Source: an uncultured Chloroflexia bacterium
GTDB taxonomy: Bacteria; Chloroflexota; Limnocylindria; Limnocylindrales; CSP1-4
Assembly: GCA_963833225.1 (NCBI GenBank)
Contig: CAWHXD010000006.1
Coordinates: 64,001-128,000, forward strand
Direction: 5' to 3'
DNA: 64,000 nucleotides
Part shown: one piece after another, positions 5,839-62,017 of the stretch
Numbering within the stretch: the first letter of the stretch is position 1
Layout: each line of letters opens with the position of its first letter
Notes under the pieces: model-generated
Databases searched by the model: none
What the model was told of the DNA's origin: nothing
The model's input: only the letters and a program-made list of their open reading frames with translations
Translations under genes and position numbers: made by a program

Positions 5839-7423
5839 CGGCGGCGAGTCTACGCCGACGGCGGTCGAGGAGGAGCGACGGCGGGACGGCGACCGCGGTC
5901 ACCACGCCCGCGACAAGGAAGATGCCGACCATGATCCGCGCCGCCTCCCCGGCGGCCCACTGCTCCAGGGCCTCCACCACGAGGCCGTCGCGCAGCGGCC
6001 GGTCCCGCAATGACTCGGGGATGTACTCGAGATAGGCGTCGGGCGTGGCGTACACCTGGTCGTACAGGCGGTCGATGGTCGTTGAGCCGTACGCGGTCAG
6101 GATGGCGAGCCCAACCGACATCCCGACCATGCGGGCGACGACCACCGTCGACGACGCCGTGCCGTATGCCTCGATCGCGACGGCCTCGACCGCCGCCGTG
6201 GACCTGGGCGTCACCGTGAGCCCAAACCCGGCACCGAACAGGGCCAGCGACGCGGCCGCGCTCTCGATGGTCGTGGTCGGCGTCCAGCCCGCCATCAGGA
6301 CCAGGCCGGCGATGCCCGCCGCCAGGCCCGCGAGGGTCACGATCCGGAGCGAGAGCACGCGCACGGCGAACCCCGACACCAGGGCCCCCAGCGCCGTGGC
6401 ACCGGCGAGCGCTCCCAACGCCAGCCGCTGATCGTCCGGACCGCCGTAGAGCACGCGGTCCACGAACACCGCGCCGCCCACGATCGCGGTGGCGAAGCCG
6501 TACCCCGTGAGCATCGAGACCACGGCGGCCGATGAGAACGGCGGCGAACGGAACAGCCGCGGGTCGAGGAACGGGTCCGGGACGCGCAGCCCGCGCAGGA
6601 TCGTCAGCGGCCCGGCCACCAGCGCCAGGCCCGCGAGGACGAGCATCACGGTCACGGGATCCACGCCCTCCGTCCCGGCCCGCGACCCGAGGAGCGTCAG
6701 CGCACCGAGCGAGCCCACGAGGAACGCGGAGAACAGGATTGCCCCGGCGAGATCCACCCGGCCCTGCCGCCGCGGCGTCTCCCAGCCGGTGCTGGCGGCC
6801 CAGGCGATGACCAGGGCCACCAGCCCCACCGGCACATTGACGTAGAAGATCCAGCGCCAGGCCGGTGCCAGCAGCGTCGCCGGCATGGCACCCGGTTCCA
6901 GGCCCAGCCGGGAGATCCCGGCCTCAGGGTGGAACGCACCGAGGATGGCGGCCCCCAGGACCGGCCCGGCGGCCATGCCCAGGAACGTCAGCGCTCCCAC
7001 CACGCCCAGGGCCCGCGGTCGCGAGGCGCCGGAGAACAGGTGGGAGGCTGCCGACGTCGCCACGGGCACCAGCGCCCCGCCGCCAACCGCCTGCACCAGG
7101 CGCGCGGCGATCAGCAGCTCGAGCGTGGGAGCCGCGCCGGCCAGCAGTGACCCCAGCGTGAACGCCACCAGCGCCCACAGGAACAGGCTCCGGGCGCCGT
7201 ACAGGTCCGCCAGCCGCCCCGCGACCGGCATGGTGACCACGTAGACCAGCAGGTACCCGTTGATGATCCAGGAGGCCTCGCGCAGGCGCGTCCAGGTCGC
7301 GAGGTCGGCGACGATGGCCGGCAGGGCCACCGCCGTGATCATCAGCTCGAGACCGGCGAGGAAGACCCCGATCCCGAGAACGGCGAGGAGAGCGAGGGCA
7401 TCACGCCGCGAGAGCCGGTCCAC
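5780..7423 (-). CDS. MFS transporter (DHA2/EmrB-like)
   Basis: Many TMs; GRLADLYGAR (motif A), ARLVQAVGGG, WRWIFYVNVPVG; 3' end overlaps the corA start. Confidence 0.9.
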   Translation of the reverse strand: MDRLSRRDALALLAVLGIGVFLAGLELMITAVALPAIVADLATWTRLREASWIINGYLLVYVVTMPVAGRLADLYGARSLFLWALVAFTLGSLLAGAAPTLELLIAARLVQAVGGGALVPVATSAASHLFSGASRPRALGVVGALTFLGMAAGPVLGAAILGAFHPEAGISRLGLEPGAMPATLLAPAWRWIFYVNVPVGLVALVIAWAASTGWETPRRQGRVDLAGAILFSAFLVGSLGALTLLGSRAGTEGVDPVTVMLVLAGLALVAGPLTILRGLRVPDPFLDPRLFRSPPFSSAAVVSMLTGYGFATAIVGGAVFVDRVLYGGPDDQRLALGALAGATALGALVSGFAVRVLSLRIVTLAGLAAGIAGLVLMAGWTPTTTIESAAASLALFGAGFGLTVTPRSTAAVEAVAIEAYGTASSTVVVARMVGMSVGLAILTAYGSTTIDRLYDQVYATPDAYLEYIPESLRDRPLRDGLVVEALEQWAAGEAARIMVGIFLVAGVVTAVAVPPSLLLDRRRRRLAADGRGEPDPGDTPTNDVIGA

Positions 7424-7583
7424 CCCGGGAGTGTAGGGGGTGGCGCCATGACGGCCTCACGGCACCGCGACGCCTACGCGCGACGCCCGCGGATCAGGTG
7501 CGAACGGTGGGCTCCGTTCGGCGGTCGTACCAGGCCGCGTAGAGCATGGGGCCGGTGAGGATGACCTGGGTTCAGCCAGGGGC

Positions 7584-7642
7584 TTGACAGGTGCCTCCCG
7601 GGTCAATAGCATCAACGCCCGTTGATATAAACCGATGTTGAT
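7584..7642 (+). promoter_or_regulatory. Sigma70-type promoter with tandem palindromic operators for the arsR-pgsA-ino1 operon
   Basis: TTGACA (7584-7589), 17 bp, TAGCAT (7607-7612); ATCAAC-N4-GTTGAT (7611-7626) and ATAAAC-N4-GTTGAT (7627-7642). Confidence 0.8.
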
Positions 7643-7685
7643 GCATCGGGACGTCAACCCCACAACCCGCAGGTCGCCCCGCCTC

Positions 7686-8048
7686 ATGTCCCCATCCCCC
7701 GCGCGGATCCGGAGCACCCTCGCAGCGGCCGTCGACCAGCCCGACGACCTCCGTGAGCTGCGCCGCTTCCACAAGGTGCTGGCGGATGTGAACCGGTTGC
7801 GGATCTGCCGCGTGCTTGTGCAGGGTCCCGCCACGGTCACCGAGCTCATCGACCGGGTCGGCCTGTCGCAACCGCTGGTCTCCTGGCACCTGTCGAAGCT
7901 GCGCGAGGTCGGGCTGGTCTCGGCGCGTCGGAATGGCCGGGAAACCGTCCACACGATCGAGCCCGGGGCGTTCGCGATGTTCGCCACCCGCCAGGCCCAG
8001 GCGCTCGGGTTCGAGTCCACCCGGGCCCCCAGGGCAGCCGACGAGTGA
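7686..8048 (+). CDS. ArsR/SmtB-family transcriptional regulator
   Basis: KVLADVNRLRI...TVTELIDRVGLSQPLVSWHLSKLREVGLVSARRNG wHTH; start could be 7635-7686. Confidence 0.88.
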   Translation: MSPSPARIRSTLAAAVDQPDDLRELRRFHKVLADVNRLRICRVLVQGPATVTELIDRVGLSQPLVSWHLSKLREVGLVSARRNGRETVHTIEPGAFAMFATRQAQALGFESTRAPRAADE

Positions 8049-8749
8049 GCGGGTCCATCGTCTCCCCGGGGCTGCGGGCCAAGGTCCGCGGCCTCGCGGA
8101 ACCCGTCGGGCTCGCGATCGCGCGGACCGGGCTATCGCCCAACGCACTCACCGTGATCGGCTTCCTGATCGCCTGCGTCGCGGCCGTCGCCGCGGCGACC
8201 GGCGCGTGGCTCCCCGCCGGGCTGCTCGTGATCTTCGGCGGGATCTTCGACATGTTCGACGGCATGGTCGCGCGGGCCACGGGCAGGGTCAGCAAGGCCG
8301 GTGCCTTCCTCGACTCGGTCTTCGACCGCTGGGGGGAAGGTGTCGTCTACGCCGGGATCATCCTGGGCTGCATGGTCGAGCACTTTGACCTCGGGATCCT
8401 GCTTGCGGCTGTCGCCATGTCGAGCGCGTTCATGGTCAGCTACACGCGGGCCCGGGCCGAGAGCCTGGGCTTCGCGCCGCCGTCGGGCATGGCGGCCGTC
8501 GGTCTCGCGCCGCGCGAGGTCCGCCTGGTGATCCTCACCCTCGGCCTCGTGCTGGCCGGCCTCGTCGGCACGACGAACCCGCTCCTCCGCCTCGAGACCT
8601 TCGACCTTCCCTTTGGCATCGCCATCGCCAAGCCCTGGGCCGGCCAGATCTGGCTGTTCTGGAGCCTGGCCGCGATCGCCATCCTCGCGACCATCACCAC
8701 CATCCAGCGCATCGTCGTCACCCTGCGGCAAGCGTCCCGACAGGGCTAG
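8045..8749 (+). CDS. pgsA: CDP-alcohol phosphatidyltransferase, probable phosphatidylinositol-phosphate synthase
   Basis: [18 protein letters not shown]...[10 protein letters not shown] signature, [12 protein letters not shown] (PIP-synthase-like); adjacent to ino1. Confidence 0.85.
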
Positions 8750-8768
8750 GCGACCCACGGAGATCCTC

Positions 8769-9958
<1,190 letters not shown>

Positions 9959-44647: not shown

Positions 44648-45238
44648 TCAGGGCGCCGCCAGCTCCACGTCGCCCGAGGCGAGGAGGGCGTTGTCCGACG
44701 CGTCCCGGATCGCCAGCGTCCAGGTCCCGGGCGCCAGCGCGCACTCGGGCGCGGTGGGCTCGGACGAGGTCACCCGGAACGAGCCGTCGGCGGTCGCGAA
44801 CCGCTCCAGGACCAGGCGTGCGACCTCCGTTGACACCCGCAGCTCGCCGACCGGTCCCCCTGTCCGCCACTCGATCCGGAGGTCGGTGGCACGGGCGGGG
44901 ATCGTCGCCGTCCACGTGCGCTCGGTGCCGTCGCACCGCCAGATCGCGGGTTCAAACCGGATGACCCCGGGTCCGCCGTTTCCGCCCAGGACCACCGCGA
45001 TGACCACGGCGGCCACGATGACGCCGTTGAGGATGAGCGCTCGCGCCACCGGGAAGCCGTCGCGTGCCGGCTCACGGGCAACCTCGTCGGCCGTCGGCGC
45101 CGCCCTTCGCGCGCCGCAACGACCGCAGAAGTCGTCACCGGCAGCCCGCTCAGAATCGCAGCGCGGACAGATCCATGGACCCGCGACGGGAGGGTCGCGA
45201 TCCGCTTCGGGCTCGGCTGCAGGATCAGGGGCGGTCAC
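44648..45238 (-). CDS. Zinc-ribbon membrane protein
   Basis: CPRC...FCGRCG followed by a TM; start 45238 or 45256. Confidence 0.65.
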   Translation of the reverse strand: MTAPDPAAEPEADRDPPVAGPWICPRCDSERAAGDDFCGRCGARRAAPTADEVAREPARDGFPVARALILNGVIVAAVVIAVVLGGNGGPGVIRFEPAIWRCDGTERTWTATIPARATDLRIEWRTGGPVGELRVSTEVARLVLERFATADGSFRVTSSEPTAPECALAPGTWTLAIRDASDNALLASGDVELAAP

Positions 45239-45275
45239 GCGTGCATCATCGCGCATGACCGGCGCCGCGCGGCTC

Positions 45276-45605
45276 TCAGGCGTCGTCGTGCAGGACCGGA
45301 AGCGCCCGGGAGGCGGCGGGCAGGCGCAGCAAGCTCAGCTCGCCGGCGATCGTTCTGAAGCGGTCCGCGGCCTCGGGGCGGATCCAGTAGTACACGTTGG
45401 ATGCGCGTCGCTCGGAGCCAACCCAGCCCGTCTCCCGCAGGACCCTGAGGTGGTGGCTCACGGTCGGCTGCTCAACCGCGCAGCAGGCGGTGAAGTCACA
45501 CGCGCACACGCGGCCTCCGCCGGCGAGCTGGCGCAGGATCGCGAGCCGGGTGGGGTCGGCGGCGCCCTGCAGGAGCCGGGCATCCGGATCGAGGATGCGC
45601 TTCAT
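45276..45605 (-). CDS. arsR: ArsR-family As(III)-responsive repressor
   Basis: ADPTRLAIL, VCACDFTACC, QPTVSHHLRVLRE; divergent from arsM. Confidence 0.85.
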   Translation of the reverse strand: MKRILDPDARLLQGAADPTRLAILRQLAGGGRVCACDFTACCAVEQPTVSHHLRVLRETGWVGSERRASNVYYWIRPEAADRFRTIAGELSLLRLPAASRALPVLHDDA

Positions 45606-45612
45606 GCCAGAC

Positions 45613-45650
45613 AGCATATTGACAAACATCGATATCGGCAAGTATCAATA
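45613..45650. promoter_or_regulatory. Divergent arsR/arsM promoters with palindromic operator
   Basis: Minus strand TTGCCG-17-TATGCT; plus strand TTGACA at 45619; TATTGA...TCAATA arms and an ATCGAT core. Confidence 0.7.
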
Positions 45651-45686
45651 CAGCGCTACGCCACCAGCACCCGGGAGATGCCGACC

Positions 45687-46514
45687 ATGATCGCCGAGAC
45701 CGTCCACGAGCAGGTTCGCGCGCGCTACGCCGCCGCCGCCGCCCAGGCTGCCGAGGGTGCGTGTTGTGCCGGCGACAACCAGGAGATCGGGCCGGAGCTG
45801 TACTCCGCCCCCGAGCGGGACGAGCTGCCCCAGGCCGCCGTGCTTGCCTCGCTCGGTTGCGGCAACCCGATCGCGGTCGCCGAGCTCCGCGAGGGCGAGC
45901 GAGTCCTGGACCTCGGTTCCGGCGGCGGCATCGACGTCCTGCTGACCGCCAGGCGCGTCGGTTCCACCGGACGGGCGTTCGGCCTGGACATGACCGACGA
46001 GATGCTCGCGCTCGCGCAGCGCAACGCGTCGGAGGCCGGCGCCACGAACGTGGAGTTCCTGCGCGGCCACATCGAGTCCATCCCGCTGCCTGCCGCATCC
46101 GTGGACGTGGTGATCAGCAACTGCGTCATCAACCTCGCGGCGGACAAGCCGGCCGTGTTCAGGGAGATTGCCCGAGTGCTGCGACCCGGCGGTCGCCTGG
46201 GCGTGACCGACATCGTGGCCGATGACCGCCTCAGCGAAGCCGAGCGTGCCGAGCGTGGCTCCTACACGGGCTGCATCGCCGGTGCCCTTTCCTTCTCGGA
46301 GTTCCGGGCCGGCCTGGAGGCCGTGGGGCTCGAGGATGTCACCATCACCCCCACCCATGACGTGGCGGACGGCATGACCAGCGCGATCGTCAAGGCGACC
46401 AAGCCCGCGAGCCCGGACGGGCAGCCCACGGGCCCTGCCCCCGCTCCCGCGACTGGCCGGGATGATCTCGCGCTCGCCGGCCCCGGGTGCTGCAGCGACC
46501 CGGGGTGCTGCTGA
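45687..46514 (+). CDS. arsM: Arsenite S-adenosylmethionine methyltransferase
   Basis: [34 protein letters not shown], terminal CC pairs; GGAG Shine-Dalgarno. Confidence 0.92.
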
Positions 46515-52028: not shown

Positions 52029-52652
52029 ATGCGCCTGATCCCATGGGAGGAGGAGCGCCTCCAGGTCTTCGCCGCCGCCGAGCTCGCCCGGCGCCATCGC
52101 GCGGCGGGCATGCCGCTCAACCACCCGGAGACGATCGCCCTCATCTGTGACGCGATGCTCGAGGCGGCGCGGGCTGGAGCGACCGATGCCGAGGTGGAGG
52201 CGGCCGGCCGCGGGGCGGTGGCGCCCGACCAGGTCATGGACGGCGTTCGGGAGCTGATCCGCGAGGTGCGCCTGGAGGTGCTGCTGGGCGATGGCTCCCG
52301 GCTCATCGTGCTGCAGGACCCGCTCGGCCGCGGGACGCCGCCGGACCCGTTCGGACCGGGGGCGCTGGTGATCGGCGATCCCCGTGAGGTCGAGGTCAAC
52401 GAGGGCCGCGAGGCGATCTCGCTCGAGGTGACGAGCCGGTCGGCACGCCGGATCCGGATCTCGTCCCACTATCCGTTCCACCGCGTCAACCCGCGCCTCG
52501 AGTTGGATCGCGAGGCGGCCCGCGGGTTCCGTCTCGACCTGCCGGCCGGCGCGTACGAGGGCTGGGAGCCGGGCGAGACGAAGACGGTGCGGCTCGTGCG
52601 CTATGCGGGAGCTGGCGGGATCGACGACGACGCGCCCGAGCCGGAACGGTGA
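52029..52652 (+). CDS. ureAB: Fused urease gamma/beta subunit (divergent)
   Basis: Gamma part: MRLIPWEEERL..AAELARR..LNHPE. Beta part: NEGR..SHY.F..VN...GFRLDLPAG...EPGE. Confidence 0.85.
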   Translation: MRLIPWEEERLQVFAAAELARRHRAAGMPLNHPETIALICDAMLEAARAGATDAEVEAAGRGAVAPDQVMDGVRELIREVRLEVLLGDGSRLIVLQDPLGRGTPPDPFGPGALVIGDPREVEVNEGREAISLEVTSRSARRIRISSHYPFHRVNPRLELDREAARGFRLDLPAGAYEGWEPGETKTVRLVRYAGAGGIDDDAPEPER

Positions 52653-54367
52653 GCCGTCTCTCCCCCGAGGAGCTCCGGGCGCGGTACGGCGCGACGACCG
52701 GGGACCGCGTGCGCCTCGGCGACACGGACCTGTGGGTGAAGGTCGCCGAGGACCGGACGGCGCGCGGCGACGAGCCGCTCTGGGGCTACGCGAAGAACCT
52801 CCGCTCGCGAATGACGCAATGGGACCAGGCGGCCGGGCCATCGGAGCTCGATGTGGTCCTGGTCGGTGCCCTGGTGATCGACCCCGTGGTCGGCGTGGTC
52901 AAGGCGGACATCGGGATCAAGGACGGCCGGATCGCGGGCATCGGGCGGGCGGGGAGTCCGGCGATCAGCGACGGGATCGACCTCGTGGTCGGCCCGAACA
53001 CGAAGGCGTACATGGCCTACGGGCTGATCGCAACGCCGGGCGCGGTGGACTCACACGTTCACACCATCGGCCCCGAGCTGCTCCCGCCGGCGCTCGCAGC
53101 CGGGGTGACGACGCTCATCACGGCCGGGTTCGAGGAGCCGCCGTTCGCGATGGAGCGCGTCCTCGCGAGTCTCGAGTCGTGGCCGGTGAACGTCGGGATG
53201 CAGGCGGGGGCCAGGGCGATGAACGAGGGCCACCTCGACAGCCTCGTGGATGCCGGCGCGATCGGGTTCAAGATCCACGAGGACAACGGCGCCTATCCCG
53301 AGCTGATCGACTGGGTGCTGCGCTACGCGGATGCGCGCGACCTCTCGGTCTCCCTCCACACGGACGGGCTCCACGAGTCGGCCGAGCTCGAGGACACGGT
53401 CGCGGCGATTGCCGGGCGAACCGTGCACGCCTACCACGTCGAAGGGTCCGGCGGCGGCCACGTGCCGGACCTCCTGGGACTCGTGCGCGAGCCATCGATC
53501 CTGTGCTCGTCCACCACGCCGACCTTGCCGTTCGGGGTCCACGCTGCGGCCGAGCACCTGCCGATGACCGTCCTCAACCACGGGCTGTCATGGGACATCC
53601 CGGGCGATGTCGAGCTGGTGCGCGAGCGGATCATCGAAGCGCGGATGGCTGCCGAGGGGCCGCTCCACGAGCTGGGCGCGATCGGGATCGTCAACTCCGA
53701 CTCCCAGGGCATGGGCCGCATCGGCGAGACGGTCCGCCGGACGTTCCAGCTGGCGCACGTGATGAAGGCCTGGCGACGCTCCGCGGCGGCCGAGGGCGTC
53801 CCGGGGCTCCCACCGGACCCTGGTCTCGTCGATCCGGACGACCGCGACGACAGCGAGCGGGTCCTGCGCTACCTGGCCAAGGTGACCGTCGAACCGGCGA
53901 TCACGCACGGGGTCTCAGCGCACGTCGGGTCGCTGCAGCCCGGGCGCATCGCCGACGTCGTGCTGTGGTCGCCCGGGTTCTTCGGCGTCAAGCCGGAGTG
54001 GGTGTTCAAGGGCGGCTTCCCGGCCTGGGGACCGCTCGGCGACGGCAACGCCTCGCTGGAGCGCGCGGAGCCCACGCGGTACCGCGCCGACTGGGCGGGC
54101 GTCGCGACGGCCGCGTGGCGCTCGTCCGTGACATTCGTGGCGTCGTCGGTGGACCGCGACGCGCTCGCCCGGCGGCTGGGGACGCGGCGGACCCTACTGG
54201 CGGCCACGGGACAGCGAGGGCTCACGCGCGCGTCGCTTGCCCGGAACCGCGCCACGGCGCCCGTGGACATCGATGTCCGGACTGGCGAGGTGTCCCTGGA
54301 CGGGCGCCGACTCGCGGTGGAACCCGTGAGCGAGGTCCCGCTCAGCCGCCGCTACCTGATGCGGTAG
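52649..54367 (+). CDS. ureC: Urease alpha-subunit homolog with an altered substrate pocket
   Basis: YGATTGDRVRLGDT, DSHVH, GFKIHED, HTD, HVEGSGGGH, SDSQGMGR, PAITHG; flap Cys absent. Confidence 0.85.
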   Translation: MSRLSPEELRARYGATTGDRVRLGDTDLWVKVAEDRTARGDEPLWGYAKNLRSRMTQWDQAAGPSELDVVLVGALVIDPVVGVVKADIGIKDGRIAGIGRAGSPAISDGIDLVVGPNTKAYMAYGLIATPGAVDSHVHTIGPELLPPALAAGVTTLITAGFEEPPFAMERVLASLESWPVNVGMQAGARAMNEGHLDSLVDAGAIGFKIHEDNGAYPELIDWVLRYADARDLSVSLHTDGLHESAELEDTVAAIAGRTVHAYHVEGSGGGHVPDLLGLVREPSILCSSTTPTLPFGVHAAAEHLPMTVLNHGLSWDIPGDVELVRERIIEARMAAEGPLHELGAIGIVNSDSQGMGRIGETVRRTFQLAHVMKAWRRSAAAEGVPGLPPDPGLVDPDDRDDSERVLRYLAKVTVEPAITHGVSAHVGSLQPGRIADVVLWSPGFFGVKPEWVFKGGFPAWGPLGDGNASLERAEPTRYRADWAGVATAAWRSSVTFVASSVDRDALARRLGTRRTLLAATGQRGLTRASLARNRATAPVDIDVRTGEVSLDGRRLAVEPVSEVPLSRRYLMR

Positions 54368-54644: not shown

Positions 54645-55697
54645 CTACCAGATGTCCCCGACCGTATACCCCTCCGGAAACGGGTCGCTCGGGTCCACCA
54701 CGTACGACGCAAAGCCCGTGATCCAGGCGGTGCCCGTGATGGTTGGCACGACAGCCGTGCGCTCTCCGATCCGGGTCTCCTCCACCAGGCGTCCCGTGAA
54801 CACCGTCCCGAGGATGCCCTCGTGCCGGAAGTCCTCGTCCAGCCCCAGCCGGCCCTTCGCATGGAGCACAGCCATCTTGGCGCACGTCCCCGTCCCGCAC
54901 GGCGAACGGTCGATGACGCCCGTCCACGTGGACGGCTTCGACCAGTCCAGCGCCCCCGTGGACACCGTGACCACGTTCCGCCACGAGTTCATCGCGTCGT
55001 GCGCGGGACCCGACAGCTGCCCGATCGTGATCCCCGCGAACCCCGGCTGCTCCGGGTGGACCACCGGCAGCTGCTCCGCCGCGGCCGCCTTGATCATCTC
55101 GGTGACACGCGTGATGTCCCGACCCTCGTCGGGCACGAGCCGGAACCCCAGCGCCTCCGCGTCGGCGATGACGTAGAACATGCCCCCGTAGGCCACGTCG
55201 ACGACGACCGTGCCCAGCTGCGGGACCTCGATCGGGACGTCGAGGTGGGTCGCGAAGGCCGGCACGTTGCGGAACGTCACGCCGGTGACCTTGCCGTTGG
55301 CGCAGGTCGCCCGGATCCGGATCAGGCCGGCGGGGGCCTCGAGCACCACCTCGGTGACGGGCTCGGTCATCGGCAGCATGCCCGTCTCGAGCAGCACCGT
55401 CGCCACGCAGATCGTGTTGGTGCCCGACATCCCCGGGTACTCGACGTGCTCCATGATCACGTAGCCGGCATCGGCCTCGGGGCGCGTCGGGGGCAGGATC
55501 ACGTTGGCGCACAGGGCCGGGTAGCCGCGCGGCTCGCGGAGCATCAGGCGGCGGAGCTCGTCCCCTTGCTGCTCGAGGTGGCGGGCCTTCTCGAGCATCG
55601 TCGCGCCCGGCACGTCCAGCACGCCGCCGACGATGACCCGGCCCGGCTCGCCCGCCGCGTGGGCGTCGACCGCCTGGAGCATCCGCGCGAGCCGCAT
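54645..55697 (-). CDS. Proline racemase family protein (Ser/Cys type)
   Basis: DAHAAGEPGR, REPRG, MSGTN, DVAYGG, DRSPCGTGT; GAGGAGG Shine-Dalgarno. Confidence 0.9.
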   Translation of the reverse strand: MRLARMLQAVDAHAAGEPGRVIVGGVLDVPGATMLEKARHLEQQGDELRRLMLREPRGYPALCANVILPPTRPEADAGYVIMEHVEYPGMSGTNTICVATVLLETGMLPMTEPVTEVVLEAPAGLIRIRATCANGKVTGVTFRNVPAFATHLDVPIEVPQLGTVVVDVAYGGMFYVIADAEALGFRLVPDEGRDITRVTEMIKAAAAEQLPVVHPEQPGFAGITIGQLSGPAHDAMNSWRNVVTVSTGALDWSKPSTWTGVIDRSPCGTGTCAKMAVLHAKGRLGLDEDFRHEGILGTVFTGRLVEETRIGERTAVVPTITGTAWITGFASYVVDPSDPFPEGYTVGDIW

Positions 55698-55809
55698 CCC
55701 GTCCTCCTCGTGCCGCCGGCAGGTACCGGCTGAGGAGAGCCTAGGGAATGCGGGCGGTGTTCGTGTACCGTGGACAACCGGGCCCGAGGCGACGACAGGG
55801 GATGGTCGG

Positions 55810-56922
55810 ATGTTCGAAGACGAGGTGGCGAGCCTGTTTCCCGCGCTCGCCGGGACCACCTATCTCAACACGGCAACGATGGGCGTCCCACCGTCGGCGG
55901 CAGTCGAGGCGCTCCGGGCGGCGGCCGACGACTGGGGCCGGGGCCGACTCGACTGGGCCGAGGCGGAACGAGCCGGGGACGAGGCCCGGGCGATGTTCGG
56001 GCAGCTCGTGCATGCGCCGGCTGGGGCCGTCGCGATCGTCCCGTATGCGAGCGCCGTCGCCGGTCTCCTCGCCGAACACCTGTTCCGACGCCATCCGGCG
56101 GGCGGCAACATCGTCGTCGGCGCCGAGGAGTTCACCTCGAACCTGTTCCCGTGGAAGGGCCTCGAGCCGCACGGGTTCGAGGTTCGCATGATCCCGTATG
56201 TCGATGGGGCAGTCCCGGAGGCCGCGATCGCCGCGGCCGTGGACCGCGAGACGCGCCTCGTTGCCGTCAGCGCCGTGCAGTCCGCGTCGGGCTACCGCGC
56301 CGACATCGCCCGGCTCCGCGAAGCCGCGGGGAGCGCGCTGCTCTATGTCGATGCCGCCCAGGCCGCGGGCATGATTCCGATCGATGTGACCGCACTCGGG
56401 ATCGACGCGCTCGCCACTCCAAGCCACAAGTTTCTGGTTGGCGTGCGTGGGATGGGCTACGGCGTGTTCTCAGCCCGCCTGCTCGACCGGATGACGCCGG
56501 TGTGGCCGGGGTGGAAGGCGGCCGCCTCCCCGATGACCAGCTTCTACGGTCCGGAGATGGTGCTCTCACCGACGGCCTCGCGACTGGACATGCCGCTGCC
56601 GTGGCTCAACGCGCTCGCCGAGCGCGAATCGATGCGCGTCCTCGCCGAGCTCGGTACGGACCGGATCCACGCGCACGACGAGGCGATGGCATCCAGGCTC
56701 ACCGAGGGACTGACGGACGCGGGTGTCCCCTTCCTCGACCATGGCGCCACGCACCGCTCGTCCATCATCTCGTGCGCGCCGGTATCGCCGGACGTCAGCG
56801 CGAGGCTGGCGGAGGCGGGCGTCATCGCGGGCGTCCGGGCCGGCCGCGTGCGGCTCGCCCTGCACCTGTACTCGACGAGCGCGCAGGTGGCGCGGGTCGT
56901 GGAGCTGCTGGCGCGACCCTAG
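55810..56922 (+). CDS. Class V PLP-dependent enzyme (aminotransferase/lyase fold)
   Basis: YLNTATMG, EFTSN, VDAAQAAG, SHKFLVG (PLP lysine); no desulfurase catalytic Cys near the C-terminus. Confidence 0.85.
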   Translation: MFEDEVASLFPALAGTTYLNTATMGVPPSAAVEALRAAADDWGRGRLDWAEAERAGDEARAMFGQLVHAPAGAVAIVPYASAVAGLLAEHLFRRHPAGGNIVVGAEEFTSNLFPWKGLEPHGFEVRMIPYVDGAVPEAAIAAAVDRETRLVAVSAVQSASGYRADIARLREAAGSALLYVDAAQAAGMIPIDVTALGIDALATPSHKFLVGVRGMGYGVFSARLLDRMTPVWPGWKAAASPMTSFYGPEMVLSPTASRLDMPLPWLNALAERESMRVLAELGTDRIHAHDEAMASRLTEGLTDAGVPFLDHGATHRSSIISCAPVSPDVSARLAEAGVIAGVRAGRVRLALHLYSTSAQVARVVELLARP

Positions 56923-57984: not shown

Positions 57985-58446
57985 CTACCGGCGCCGTGCT
58001 TCGGCTACGGCGCGGTCCATGTCCCGCTTGCTGTCCCGCTCCTGGATCTCGCGCCGGCGGTCCCAGGTCTGCTTTCCGCGCGCCAGGCCCAGGAGCAGCT
58101 TGGCCTTGCCCCGATCGTTGATGTAGATCGAGAGCGGCACCAGGGTGAGGCCCTTGGCCTTGGTCTTGCCCAGCAGCTCATCGATCTCATCGCGGTGGAG
58201 GAGCAGCTTGCGGGCGCGCTTGGGCTCGTGGTTGAACCGGACGTCGGCGGATTCCCACGGCGCGATGTGCAACCCGATGATCCACGCCTCGTCACGCTCG
58301 ATGCGCGCGTACGCATCGGCCAGGCTGACCTTGTGCGCCCGGACGCTCTTGATCTCGGTGCCGCGCAGCACGATGCCCGCCTCGAAGGTGTCCTCGACGC
58401 TGTACTCGTGGCGCGCTCGTCGGTTCTGGGCGATGGTCTCGCCCAT
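57985..58446 (-). CDS. smpB: SsrA-binding protein
   Basis: IAQNRRARHEY, EAGIVLRGTEIKS, RKLLLH, GLARGK..WDRR; AGGAG Shine-Dalgarno. Confidence 0.97.
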   Translation of the reverse strand: MGETIAQNRRARHEYSVEDTFEAGIVLRGTEIKSVRAHKVSLADAYARIERDEAWIIGLHIAPWESADVRFNHEPKRARKLLLHRDEIDELLGKTKAKGLTLVPLSIYINDRGKAKLLLGLARGKQTWDRRREIQERDSKRDMDRAVAEARRR

Positions 58447-58568
58447 CGGTGGCTCCTCTCGTGGTGGCAGGCCAGTGTCGCACGGGGCGGGCTGGGGCTC
58501 CGGACGCCGGGCCCCGATGGGCCCCGGGCGACGGGGCCTGGATGGGCCCGGCGACGGCGCCGGACGCA

Positions 58569-58600
58569 CGAACGCCGGCCCGTTGCCGGACCGGCGTTCG
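58569..58600 (-). terminator. Strong hairpin with GCAA tetraloop, probable terminator of the small transcript
   Basis: Minus strand CGAACGCCGGTCCG-GCAA-CGGGCCGGCGTTCG; weak U-tail. Confidence 0.6.
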
Positions 58601-58631
58601 AATTGCTACCGACCACCCGTCGGGATCGTCT

Positions 58632-58682
58632 CTAGACGACGATCTCCGCCGAGGTGGTGCAGCAACTACTACTGTCGATCAC
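58632..58682 (-). CDS. Putative 16-aa small peptide MIDSSSCCTTSAEIVV within a structured small transcript
   Basis: GAAAGGAGGTGAT Shine-Dalgarno (58688-58700), GTG start, TAG stop; dedicated promoter upstream and hairpin downstream. Confidence 0.6.
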   Translation of the reverse strand: MIDSSSCCTTSAEIVV

Positions 58683-58711
58683 TGCACATCACCTCCTTTC
58701 GTTCGCAAGCG

Positions 58712-58740
58712 ACCCTACCCGATCCTGCTTGAGCGCGCAA
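58712..58740 (-). promoter_or_regulatory. Sigma70-type promoter of the small-ORF transcript
   Basis: TTGCGC (58735-58740), 17 bp, TAGGGT (58712-58717). Confidence 0.65.
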
Positions 58741-58780
58741 GCGCCGATTTCGCGGGGCCGGGTGGGGACCCGCCGACGCC

Positions 58781-60124
58781 TCAGGCAGCCAGATCCGCCC
58801 GCAGGATACGGGCCGCGCCGGCACCCAGCTCCTGGAGCGCCCGGTCCAGCACCGGGTCGTCGCCGGGCGTGGCCGGCGGCTGATCGACCACGATGTCGGG
58901 CTCGATGCCGACGCGGTGCACCCACGTCCGGTCCGGTGTCAGCCACTTGGCGATCGTGAGCCGGAAACCACCGCTGTCGTCCTCGAGCTGGGTCCATTGC
59001 TGGACCGTACCCTTGCCGAACGTCCGGGTGCCGATCAGCGTCGCCCGCCCGCGATCGTGCAGCGCCCCCGCCACGATCTCCGATGCCGAGGCCGATCCAC
59101 CGTCTACGAGGAGCATCACCCGGATGCTCGGGTCCACGGCCACGCCGCCCGGCCTGGCAACGGTCTCGAGGAGCGACCCGTCGGCAGCCTCCTGCCAGAA
59201 GATGGTGCCGTCGGGAATGAACTGGCTCGCGATGTCACGGGCCGCGGTCACGTACCCGCCGGGGTTGCCGCGCAGGTCCACGATCAGCTTCGTCCGTCCC
59301 GCGTTGACGTCCTCGGTGAGCGCCGCAAGGAACTGCTGGGAGGCGTGATCGGAGAAGCCCGAGAGGCGGATGTAGCCCACGGTCCCGCCGGCCAGGTCCC
59401 TGGCCTCGACCTCCGGCCTGACGATCACGTCGCGGACGATCTCCACGTCCCGTGGCGCCTCGTCGGCCCGCTCGATGGTGAGCACCACCGCCGTGCCCTT
59501 TGGCCCCCGGACGTCGACGAGGACGTCGTCGAGCGTTCGACCGTCGTTGGGAACGTCATCGACCTGCGTCACCACGTCACCCGGCTGGAGGCCTGCACGG
59601 TCGGCCGGCAAATCCTTGATGGGGGCGATGATGACCATCCGGCAGTCCGGCCCGAGATCGCGGCAGGACGAGCTGGCTCCGGCGCCGTCGACCGTGCCGA
59701 TGGTGGCCCCGATTCCCTCGAACTCGCCCGAGATCCCCTCCAGGCTCTGCTTGAACTCGTCGGACGTGAGGTAGGAGGAGTACGGGTCGTCGAGCGCACC
59801 GATCATCCCCTTGATGGCGCCTTCCACGAGGGCCTTCCGATCGACCTCGCCGCCGGCATAGCGCTCGGTGACCGCGCGGTAGGCGTCCCAGAAGGGCTGG
59901 AACAGCTCGGTCTCGTTGGCCGGGGTGCCGGGCGTGAGCGCCACCTGCCGGCCGAGGCTCCAGCCCGAGAGGAAGAGCACGCTGCCGGCGAGGACGGCGA
60001 TCAGGCTGGCCGCCACGATGGTGGTTGCGGTCCGGCGGGCCGGTCGGCCGGAGCCCGGCGCCACGGCGGGTGACGGGGCAGCCGGGGCCTCGGGGTCCGG
60101 GGCGGCTTGAGGTTCGAGGGACAT
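58781..60124 (-). CDS. S41 carboxy-terminal processing protease (CtpA family)
   Basis: LDDPYS, PDZ GIGA, VDLRGNPGG, SASASEI, TFGKG. Confidence 0.93.
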   Translation of the reverse strand: MSLEPQAAPDPEAPAAPSPAVAPGSGRPARRTATTIVAASLIAVLAGSVLFLSGWSLGRQVALTPGTPANETELFQPFWDAYRAVTERYAGGEVDRKALVEGAIKGMIGALDDPYSSYLTSDEFKQSLEGISGEFEGIGATIGTVDGAGASSSCRDLGPDCRMVIIAPIKDLPADRAGLQPGDVVTQVDDVPNDGRTLDDVLVDVRGPKGTAVVLTIERADEAPRDVEIVRDVIVRPEVEARDLAGGTVGYIRLSGFSDHASQQFLAALTEDVNAGRTKLIVDLRGNPGGYVTAARDIASQFIPDGTIFWQEAADGSLLETVARPGGVAVDPSIRVMLLVDGGSASASEIVAGALHDRGRATLIGTRTFGKGTVQQWTQLEDDSGGFRLTIAKWLTPDRTWVHRVGIEPDIVVDQPPATPGDDPVLDRALQELGAGAARILRADLAA

Positions 60125-60208
60125 GGCGGGGATCTCGAGCGGGTTCGACCGGCGGGCGGCCAGCGTACCGCCAGAGCGCCGAGCCTGCGTGCGGAGGCGG
60201 TGGACCGG

Positions 60209-61093
60209 CTACCGGATCAGATAGGTGCGCACCGACAGCCAGGAGCCGAGGACCCCGAGCCCGAGGCCCGTCGCGAGCACCAGCGCCGCGGTGTCGCGCC
60301 CGACCGTCCCGAGCTGCAGTGGCAGCACGTTGAAGAAGCCGACCATCGCCTGCGACAGCGGGTCCGCGGCGAGCGCGAGCAGGCCCAGGGTCAGCAGCGC
60401 CCCCAGCAGGCCGACGAGGGCACCCTCGAACACGAATGGCCAGCGGATGAACGAATCGGACGCACCCACCAGGCGCATGATCTCGATCTCCTCGGCCCGC
60501 GCCACGACCGCCAGCCGGATCGTGTTCACGATGATGAACAGCACGATCACCCCGACGATCGCGACCATCGCCACGCCCGCCGTCCGCACGAACCCGGTGA
60601 CCGTCACGACCCGGCCAACCAGGGCCTCGATGTTGAGCACGTTGCGCACGATCGGGTCGTCACGGAGGGCGCCCACGACGGCATCGAGGTCGCCGGGCGC
60701 GGTGAGCTTCACGTTGACGCTCGCATACAGCGGGTTGGAGTCGAGGTACTGGGTGAGGTCTTCGCGGCCCTGCGCCTCCTGGGTCTGGCGGAACCTCGCC
60801 AGGGCCTCGTCACGGGTGATGAACTCCACCGATGCGGTTTCGGGCATGGCATCGATCCGGGCCACCAGGTCGTCGACCTGGGCCTGCGTCGCGGTGTTCT
60901 CGACGTACGCCACGACCTCGACCTTCTGCTCCACGAAGGCCAGGCTCGCGAGGAGGACGTTCTGGAGCAGGAAGAAGCCCGCCAGGAGCAGGAGCATCAG
61001 GACCATCGTGAGCGTGGCCGCGAGACTCATCAGCGCGTTGCGCCAGAACCCCTGCCAGGCCCGCCCGAGCGAGAACAGCACGAAGGCGATCAC
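60209..61093 (-). CDS. ftsX: Cell division permease FtsX
   Basis: RNALMS, NPL, IVNTIRL, EIEIMRLVGASDSFIRWPFVFEG. Confidence 0.95.
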   Translation of the reverse strand: MIAFVLFSLGRAWQGFWRNALMSLAATLTMVLMLLLLAGFFLLQNVLLASLAFVEQKVEVVAYVENTATQAQVDDLVARIDAMPETASVEFITRDEALARFRQTQEAQGREDLTQYLDSNPLYASVNVKLTAPGDLDAVVGALRDDPIVRNVLNIEALVGRVVTVTGFVRTAGVAMVAIVGVIVLFIIVNTIRLAVVARAEEIEIMRLVGASDSFIRWPFVFEGALVGLLGALLTLGLLALAADPLSQAMVGFFNVLPLQLGTVGRDTAALVLATGLGLGVLGSWLSVRTYLIR

Positions 61094-61096
61094 TCG

Positions 61097-61882
61097 TCAG
61101 TCCTCGCGGTGGTAGGTCGCGCCGGTCTCGTCGCGGATGATCCGGCCGTCCTCGAGCGCCACGACACGCTTGCGAAGCGCGGTGACCACCTCCGCATCGT
61201 GGGTCGCCATGAGGATCGTCACGCCCAGCTCGTTGATGCGGAGCAGCAGCTGGATGATCTCCCAGCTGATGACGGGATCCAGGTTCCCGGTCGGCTCGTC
61301 GGCGATGATGATCCTCGGGTCGTGGACGAGGGCGCGGGCGATGGCGGTCCGCTGCTGCTCGCCGCCCGAGAGCTGCGTGGGCATCTGGTCCGCCTGGCCC
61401 GTGAGCCCCACGAGCGCAAGGACCCGATCCACGGCCGGGCGGATCTCGCGTCTGGGCGTGCCGGTGACCTCGAGCGCGAAGGCCACGTTCTCACGCACCG
61501 ACTTGCGGGGCAGGAGCTTGAAGTCCTGGAACACGATCCCGATCTTGCGCCGGATCCTCGGCACCTGCCGGCGCTTGATCCGGGCAAGGTCATGGCCGTC
61601 AACCAGGACGTCGCCGTGCGTCGCGAGCTCGTCGCGGATGATCAGCTTCATGATCGTGGACTTGCCGGCGCCCGATGGGCCAACGAGGAACACGAAGTCG
61701 CCCTCGGGGACGACCAGGTCCACGTCCTTGAGCGCCTCCTTGCCATTGGGGTAGCGCTTGGTCACGTCGTGGAACACGAGGAGCGCACCGTCGGCGTGCG
61801 GCCGTCGCCTGCGCCGGGTGAGCCGGTCGAACAGCGAGGGGGTCGCGGTGTGGCTGGGGGCGTCGCCCGGGATGACGGTCAT
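61097..61882 (-). CDS. ftsE: Cell division ATP-binding protein FtsE
   Basis: GPSGAGKST, VFQDFKLL, LSGGEQQR, ADEPTGNLD, ATHD; directly upstream of ftsX. Confidence 0.95.
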   Translation of the reverse strand: MTVIPGDAPSHTATPSLFDRLTRRRRRPHADGALLVFHDVTKRYPNGKEALKDVDLVVPEGDFVFLVGPSGAGKSTIMKLIIRDELATHGDVLVDGHDLARIKRRQVPRIRRKIGIVFQDFKLLPRKSVRENVAFALEVTGTPRREIRPAVDRVLALVGLTGQADQMPTQLSGGEQQRTAIARALVHDPRIIIADEPTGNLDPVISWEIIQLLLRINELGVTILMATHDAEVVTALRKRVVALEDGRIIRDETGATYHRED

Positions 61883-62017
61883 GTGCTCGCTCGGCGGGTG
61901 GTCGCGGCGAGGTCTCCGACCGAGGGCACAATCGAGGGAGCCACGTTCGCCTGAGGCTAGCACAGCGAGGCGGCGGACCGGCTGAGGCGGCGTGCCGGCC
62001 GCGCCGACACGGCGCGC

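Follow-up and report, generated by a model that had tools for sequence, protein, structure and literature searches.

A 64,000-nucleotide stretch of DNA from an uncultured soil Chloroflexia bacterium of the class Limnocylindria (contig CAWHXD010000006.1, assembly GCA_963833225.1; hereafter the window, meaning this stretch at its full length) carries two overlapping genes, ure(AB) and ureC, which encode a heteromeric urease-fold enzyme made of a gamma/beta fusion and an alpha subunit. This enzyme is very probably functional and free of any need for urease accessory proteins. We tentatively propose, with a confidence just under even, that it works independently of chaperones and that its main substrate is an N-substituted urea such as N-carbamoylputrescine, not urea. 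The alpha subunit falls within a distinct group of urease relatives, termed here the short-loop clade. The genes and their junction are as follows:

52029..52652, plus strand: ure(AB), fused urease gamma/beta, 207 aa (open reading frame, Pfam and NCBIfam)
52649..54367, plus strand: ureC-like alpha subunit, 572 aa, short-loop clade (open reading frame, NF009686, alignment and structure model)
52649..52652, plus strand: GTGA, in which the GTG start of ureC lies over the TGA stop of ureAB, 4 nt (sequence reading)

The window has a G+C content of ~71% and lies on contig 6 of a source genome of 3.89 Mb in 20 contigs, 86% complete. The GTGA overlap probably couples translation of ureAB and ureC, and a ureAB homolog is found directly 5' of ureC in 55 of 57 close loci. 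Urease gamma/beta together with alpha is a textbook subunit pair. Pfam places Urease_gamma at residues 1-98 (93.7 bits) and Urease_beta at residues 110-196 (87.6 bits) of one protein, so the gamma/beta fusion described in a first-pass annotation of the window stands; this protein scores 195 bits against the NCBIfam bifunctional gamma/beta model NF009671, under its cut-off of 243. The alpha protein matches both Urease_alpha (PF00449, 121.6 bits, cut-off 23) and Amidohydro_1 (PF01979, 114.1 bits, cut-off 25), and exceeds the cut-off of the NCBIfam subfamily NF009686 (618.1 bits versus 354, E 1.7e-185).

We mapped the active site by aligning the alpha protein to H. pylori UreB (1E9Z_B, 457 bits) and counted invariance over 138 short-loop sequences, whose identity is as low as 58%. 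Every motif quoted in the first-pass annotation is present in the translation (DSHVH at 134, TAGFEEPP at 158, GFKIHEDNG at 206, HTDGLHE at 237, HVEG at 263, TVLNHGL at 307 and SDSQGMG at 350). The residues that matter for metal binding, catalysis and the substrate pocket are these:

53054..53062, plus strand: H136-V-H138, the first two metal ligands, equivalent to H. pylori H136/H138; in 138 of 138 clade sequences
53120..53143, plus strand: rebuilt beta2-alpha2 loop T158-A-G-F-E-E-P-P165, 11 residues shorter than GGGTGPADGTNATTxTPG (alignments)
53270..53284, plus strand: K208-I-H210-E-D212, the carbamylatable Lys with its His and Asp, equivalent to H. pylori K219 and H221/D223 (alignment and clade)
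53357..53359, plus strand: H237, the ligand in HTDGLHE, equivalent to H. pylori H248 (alignment and clade)
53435..53446, plus strand: H263-V-E-G, ligand His equivalent to H. pylori H274, with Val for the canonical Thr (alignments)
53567..53587, plus strand: flap T307-V-L-N-H311-G-L, with N310-H311-G312 for H. pylori C321-H322-H323 (alignment)
53627..53629, plus strand: R327, equivalent to H. pylori R338 (alignment; 138 of 138 in the clade)
53699..53713, plus strand: D351-S-Q-G354-M, ligand Asp equivalent to H. pylori D362, with G354 for A365 (alignment and clade)

The machinery of urease chemistry is thus retained. H263 is kept in 137 of the 138 short-loop sequences and the other ligands of the binuclear site in all of them; H210, D212, H311 and R327 are also invariant. 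The same catalytic set is invariant in the canonical and divergent rows of our family alignment, the KIHED motif included. In urease, catalysis is helped by the flap His, the Arg and the KIHED His/Asp pair, and the retained flap His, which aligns to H322, is presumably the catalytic one. Since the ligands, the Lys and these helper residues are all kept and clade-invariant, we predict a functional hydrolase whose urease-type chemistry is directed at a terminal carbamoyl group (H2N-CO-N).

The substrate pocket, by comparison with canonical urease, has been rebuilt. The pocket loop GGGTGPxxGTxATT and the flap Cys-His-His of canonical urease are both absent from the alpha protein; as the first-pass annotation had read it, the flap has lost its Cys and one His, and N213 stands where H. 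pylori has W224. Aligned to 1E9Z_B, the alpha protein lacks 11 residues of GGGTGPADGTNATTITPG and with them the position of H. pylori A169 (Ala170 in S. pasteurii), which we take to supply the backbone carbonyl that holds one NH2 of urea. The replacement is far from variable: A159, G160, F161, E163 and P164 of the turn are invariant in the 138 sequences and E162 is present in 135, while in the flap H311 and G312 are invariant and N310 is found in 122. The invariance of loop and ligands argues that the change is fixed and under selection, and is not decay. In an AlphaFold2 model of the alpha protein (pLDDT 88, pTM 0.93), a turn of five residues connects a strand (153-159) to a helix (165-177). 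With this model as query, the top 39 Foldseek ranks are all ureases (TM 0.86-0.92), followed by other amidohydrolases at 0.44-0.49.

To place the protein within its family, we searched 1.84 billion cluster representatives, which gave 458 proteins at E <=1e-30, and aligned 42 of the listed representatives with lengths of 530-900 residues. A canonical group in this alignment carries GGGTGP..ATT, HEDWG, HTEG, CHH and SQAMG, and a divergent group of many sequences carries HVEG or HIEG, HEDxG, a shortened loop and no CHH. Two quick IQ-TREE runs were made with SH-aLRT support only, the first on 33 rows after removal of 27 fragmentary, ligand-less or duplicate rows. Canonical rows lie on one side of a branch with a support of 100, rows with the 11-residue deletion form another branch (99 in both trees), and types with a loop shorter by 4 residues fall between the two. 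The comparison with canonical UreC that the first-pass annotation had called for therefore sets the window gene outside the canonical branch and inside the short-loop clade, of which it has the features: a TLITAGF(E/D)EPP loop, HVEG and an xHG flap. Three subclades can be told apart, namely the Limnocylindria with the window gene, a group whose single named member is from Euzebyaceae and a group seen in metagenome contigs only, and by record names the clade spans at least two phyla.

This division agrees with the NCBIfam urease alpha equivalog TIGR01792, which has a cut-off of 680 bits. The accessory-bearing genes of Methylobacterium radiotolerans (805.7 bits) and of G253, another genome of the class with a canonical urease gene (916.9 bits), pass it; the window alpha (537.1 bits), an aguA-linked member of the short-loop clade (559.5 bits) and a Streptomyces gene pair (610.6 bits), none of which has accessory genes, remain below. 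Among the types examined, the traits that track the absence of helper genes are the loop deletion, HVEG or HIEG and a flap without CHH; HVEG or HIEG occurs in every accessory-free type and HTEG in the accessory-bearing ones. The substitutions listed by the first-pass annotation are accordingly of unequal value as markers. The loop deletion and the loss of the CHH flap hold up, but three others are not diagnostic: SQGMG is present in the accessory-bearing, urtA-linked operon of M. radiotolerans, Ala takes the place of the flap Cys in representatives P0149 and P0163 as well as in G253, whose canonical gene is accessory-linked, and HEDN is limited to the source genus, its relatives having HEDY or HEDW.

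No ureD, ureE, ureF or ureG was reported in the window by the first-pass annotation, and this holds well beyond it. Profile scans of the 86%-complete source genome gave no match to UreF, UreD, UreG (TIGR00101) or UreE_C, which taken alone is weak evidence because of that incompleteness, and none to the nickel permeases NicO and HupE/UreJ, Nik/Cbi-type nickel ABC systems lying outside the search. A genome-wide search for urease alpha found no second ureC; the single match is the window gene itself, so the first-pass annotation was mistaken in calling it a paralog. Each of five relatives, two of which are single chromosomes, likewise has one urease-alpha gene and no UreG over the cut-off; in one of the five a short UreF match (32 bits) exceeds the Pfam cut-off, 170 kb from ureC.

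The same pattern is seen across a class sample of 251 genomes, including 11 flagged as unpublished that belong to two other families and have no urease-type, UreF or PF04371 match listed. The window alpha finds matches in 34 genomes, 32 of them at 59-100% identity and two (G253 and G131) at 42-46%. UreF exceeds its cut-off in exactly two of the 251 genomes, these same two, where it adjoins the canonical-type ureC, and in 0 of the 32 genomes that carry the window type. When Methylobacterium UreE, UreF, UreG and UreD were compared by tblastn with the window and 125 clade loci (1.5 Mb), only L084, the canonical G253 control, matched. Together, these data strongly support, at the level of gene content, the suggestion of the first-pass annotation that the window enzyme would be accessory-independent.

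Canonical nickel ureases (K. aerogenes 2KAU, S. pasteurii 4UBP and H. pylori 1E9Z) share with the window enzyme the fold (TM 0.90-0.92), the subunit set, the six metal-site residues, the flap His, the Arg and the KIHED His/Asp, at 40-41% identity. The window alpha differs from them in lacking 11 residues of the GGGTGPADGTNATT loop, in HVEG for HTEG and in NHG for the CHH flap, as well as in the absence of ureDEFG from the source genome, in its position outside the canonical branch and in its score below the TIGR01792 cut-off. The M. radiotolerans plasmid pMRAD01 operon, ureE-ureF-ure(AB)-ureC-ureG-ureD-urtA, resembles the window genes in its gamma/beta fusion, SDSQGMG and an altered loop (3 residues shorter), but it keeps HEDWG, HTDTLNE, HTEG and MVCHHL, all accessory genes and urtA.

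Urease-type genes that stand without helpers have precedents. We take the pockets of both B. subtilis urease and H. mustelae UreA2B2 to be canonical. In a search with the window alpha, the H. mustelae chain 3QGA_C scores 436 bits, within the 417-457 bits of nickel ureases, and so shows no special kinship of the window protein to UreB2. The structural genes of B. subtilis ureABC work without dedicated accessory genes, according to the available part of PMC8600894. Both are single cases, whereas the window type is a large clade with a rebuilt loop. Streptomycete clusters consisting of ure(AB)C only have been in print since 2008 (available parts of PMC2492869, PMC5489568 and PMC3293853); those of the SCO5525/SCO5526 type comprise a gamma/beta fusion and an alpha gene in a cluster without accessory genes, as far as the accessible text of PMC2492869 and PMC5489568 describes them. 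A Streptomyces plasmid copy resembles the window gene in HVEG, a non-W HEDxG, the loss of the CHH flap and a TIGR01792 score of 611; it differs in its identity (~45%), in a loop that is 4 and not 11 residues shorter, and in being mid-divergent, not short-loop. Streptomycetes also carry a canonical urease operon, which the source genome lacks.

The clue to a substrate comes from a sister subclade. A metagenome scan with the Euzebyaceae-type protein yielded 48 loci, and in 21 of these a gene of the agmatine-deiminase family (PF04371, E 4e-104) adjoins the ure genes. In 17 of the 21 the order on one strand is ureAB-aguA-ureC, in two it is next to ureC where the contig ends and in two it lies upstream of ureAB; at one locus (L106, three genes at 6345-9692) the ends of the aguA-like gene overlap both ureAB and ureC. 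The alpha proteins linked to it have the TLITAGFEEPP loop, HVEG and SQGMG, as in the window clade. Against TIGR03380 the agmatine-deiminase-family gene scores 314-322 bits, under the cut-off of 382. N-carbamoylputrescine is a monosubstituted urea. It is the product of agmatine deiminase and is then taken up by AguB or by putrescine carbamoyltransferase (available part of PMC13625781). As no urea arises on this route, an aguA gene wedged between ure genes is what would be expected of a ureido hydrolase, not of a urease.

Within the class sample the PF04371 gene is present in five of the 251 genomes, all five of them ure(AB)C carriers and the source genome among them, and in 0 of 77 Limnocylindria loci within the stretch examined. 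In G067, of the same genus as the source genome, it lies 2.5 kb from the ure genes (G067:C1:2147278-2152421, L148), just upstream of them together with a gene for a 700-aa Amidohydro_3 protein; ureC of this genome is split into two adjacent matches, possibly by a frameshift or an assembly error. In the source genome the aguA-like gene is on contig 19 (locus at 865604-869572), after genes for PNPOx-like, luciferase-like (F420-type) and CofD proteins on one strand, and G103 has the same order of PNPOx-like, luciferase-like, CofD and aguA-like genes. The AguB equivalog cut-off of 410 is reached in 0 of the 251 class genomes, the best score being 292.

Other short-loop and accessory-free loci have different company. 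In L092 (5044-12972) and L095, a single strand carries an aldehyde dehydrogenase, an IclR regulator, the short-loop ure(AB)C, an L-lysine 6-transaminase (TIGR03251, 683 bits; cut-off 521) and a ProW/ProV-type ABC transporter; the substrate there may be a lysine in carbamoylated form, for instance homocitrulline. The short-loop genes of L123 (5884-11415) and L124 lie between Amidohydro_1 and Amidohydro_3 genes. On a plasmid of Streptomyces sp. NBC_00637 (L087, 1-9504), an accessory-free ure(AB)C is embedded in a cluster resembling those for non-ribosomal peptide synthetases (NRPS) and natural products, in the one-strand order adenylation and condensation domain proteins, phosphotransferase, hypothetical protein, ureAB, ureC and 2OG-Fe(II) oxygenase.

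We tentatively propose that the enzyme works as follows. Its metal centre would form by itself, as in the carbamyl-lysine amidohydrolases dihydroorotase and hydantoinase, and the metal may be other than nickel. The 11-residue deletion would take out the loop that closes the pocket round the second NH2 of urea, and the invariant Phe-Glu-Glu-Pro turn would open space for a substituent and provide a docking site for its ammonium group. The likeliest substrate would be N-carbamoylputrescine or a similar omega-ureido amine, and the products would be the amine and carbamate, the latter decaying to CO2 and NH3; urea itself may still be turned over. With the agmatine-deiminase-family gene of the genome, agmatine would be converted to putrescine without AguB. 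The fold and mechanism of AguB, which uses a Cys-Glu-Lys triad, are unrelated to those of urease. By analogy, the reaction that this N-carbamoylputrescine amidohydrolase of the nitrilase superfamily performs after AguA would be the one proposed here for the window enzyme (available part of PMC13625781).

Several observations weigh against such a change of substrate. The ure pair in the window stands alone, convergent to a housekeeping block and with no functional partner. The aguA wedge is limited to one subclade, ~59% identical to the window protein, which keeps HEDWG and has an AVHGGS flap; the PF04371 gene is missing from 27 of the 32 class carriers, and its co-occurrence with ure(AB)C in all five genomes that have it is weak, non-independent evidence because four of the five belong to one genus. 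Of the 251 class genomes, 244 encode a CN-hydrolase that scores 265-292 bits against the AguB model and could do the AguB step. A lesser change of the loop occurs in the accessory-bearing, urtA-linked operon, and a loop change alone does not, therefore, exclude urea. The source genome has an agmatinase (TIGR01230, 190.5 versus a cut-off of 174.3), which releases urea, and no urea carboxylase over the cut-off, which leaves the urease-type enzyme as the only visible route for recovering urea nitrogen. In the CC-licensed PMC and bioRxiv literature we found no assay of any accessory-free ure(AB)C, the short-loop clade included. The bulkier ureido substrate suggested by the first-pass annotation is hence plausible, given the deletion of the A169 position and the aguA wedge in a sister subclade with the same loop, but it draws no help from the neighbours of the window genes or from most carriers in the class.

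These points lend weight to a simpler explanation, a serious possibility if on balance a rather improbable one, in which the protein is a true, deep-branching urease (EC 3.5.1.5) that matures without UreDEFG, whether its metal is nickel or not, and serves to recover the nitrogen of urea, for example from agmatinase; the pocket changes would be drift and urea would still be bound by backbone groups. All residues of the urease mechanism are kept, the gene is the sole urease-type gene of its genome, agmatinase is present while urea carboxylase is not seen over the cut-off, and a stand-alone two-gene operon scattered over the family (in 32 of 73 genomes) is what a nitrogen-scavenging trait might look like. 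We assume that the iron urease UreA2B2 of H. mustelae is independent of accessory proteins; its structure has been solved (PDB 3QGA). B. subtilis ureABC, lacking accessory genes, is a second precedent, with very low activity (available part of PMC8600894), and the altered loop with SQGMG in an accessory-bearing, urtA-linked operon points the same way. A plain urease does not, however, explain why the score falls under an equivalog cut-off that the accessory-bearing genes tested pass, why the deleted segment covers the A169 position or why the replacement loop is invariant, a constancy that speaks for selection of a new function. Nor is there an equivalog-level urea ABC transporter (UrtA) over the cut-off in 81 genomes of the family, and if the substrate were urea, the gene surroundings of relatives (aguA, lysine transaminase, NRPS) would make no sense.

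The variety of these contexts could instead mean that the substrate is some other small nitrogen compound outside polyamines (guanidine, biuret, carbamoyl amino acids like citrulline and homocitrulline, or a natural-product intermediate), perhaps a different one in each subclade. The L-lysine 6-transaminase and ProV-type ABC set, the further amidohydrolases beside the genes in L123 and G067, the pair inside a Streptomyces NRPS cluster and a conserved acidic pair suited to a cationic group all agree with this; yet none of those partners is near the window genes, and full-length arginine deiminase, found in ~10 genomes, has no association with the short-loop carriers. In the loci examined, no operon of ornithine carbamoyltransferase and carbamate kinase was seen. 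We consider this reading unlikely. That the gene is merely what remains, decaying or no longer catalytic, of a urease that lost its helpers is highly improbable. Accessory genes are indeed absent, and three of the 32 class carriers (G067, G166 and G202) have split or stop-containing matches, but at the window locus the frames are intact, the ligands and rebuilt loop are invariant in 138 sequences from three subclades and, by record names, at least two phyla, and the structure model is confident. An enzyme acting on N-carbamoylputrescine or a related N-substituted urea remains our preferred, if tentative, reading.

The surroundings of the window genes were also considered as a clue to the substrate and gave no hint, the conserved neighbours being a proline-racemase-family gene and a housekeeping block:

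54645-55859, minus strand: proline-racemase-family gene (Pfam, 402 bits), convergent to ureC
57985-61963, minus strand: housekeeping block of smpB, S41/CtpB-like protease, ftsX and ftsE, syntenic family-wide and abutting the ure pair

Genes were called with an in-house GC3-based caller, which missed or over-extended some of them. Among the 57 close loci, the proline-racemase-family gene is convergent in 49, the S41 protease is present in 46 and an upstream GNAT gene in six. The proline-racemase-family proteins are 72-94% identical among close loci, above the identity of ureC, and the window copy scores 373 bits against the trans-3-hydroxy-L-proline dehydratase model, under its cut-off of 550. 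The pair abuts the block smpB, S41 protease, ftsX, ftsE, GNAT and prfB in every one of 20 loci from the family's other genera. Upstream, an MFS transporter is found in seven family loci, adjoining the ure genes in some, and a membrane protein adjoins them in four; neither has a family assignment. Elsewhere in the window, a 607-aa open reading frame (44691-46514, plus strand) has a class I methyltransferase domain at 397-524 only, its first ~390 residues being without a Pfam match. Enzymes that release urea from guanidino compounds are described in PMC11399263.

Ureases are regarded as a nickel-dependent family with a single function, and studies of soils and waters widely rely on ureC as a marker gene for ureolysis. 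Neither the short-loop clade nor an aguA-ure operon came up in our searches of the CC-licensed PMC and bioRxiv literature. Based on our findings it is possible, though short of probable, that an entire urease branch, common in soil Chloroflexota and Actinomycetota, dropped the nickel chaperones and moved from urea to N-carbamoyl amines as substrates, and that this branch and an agmatine-deiminase-family enzyme make up a guanidino-to-amine path of two steps, from agmatine through N-carbamoylputrescine to putrescine, that replaces AguB. The agmatine-deiminase wedge makes this a concrete substrate hypothesis. If true, this would mark the first case in nature of a changed substrate within the urease family, and the clade would offer a natural model for how a carbamyl-lysine binuclear site assembles without chaperones in a urease scaffold. 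Some of the ureC signal from the environment would then be wrongly assigned, and many ureC genes in soil and freshwater metagenomes would not be ureases.

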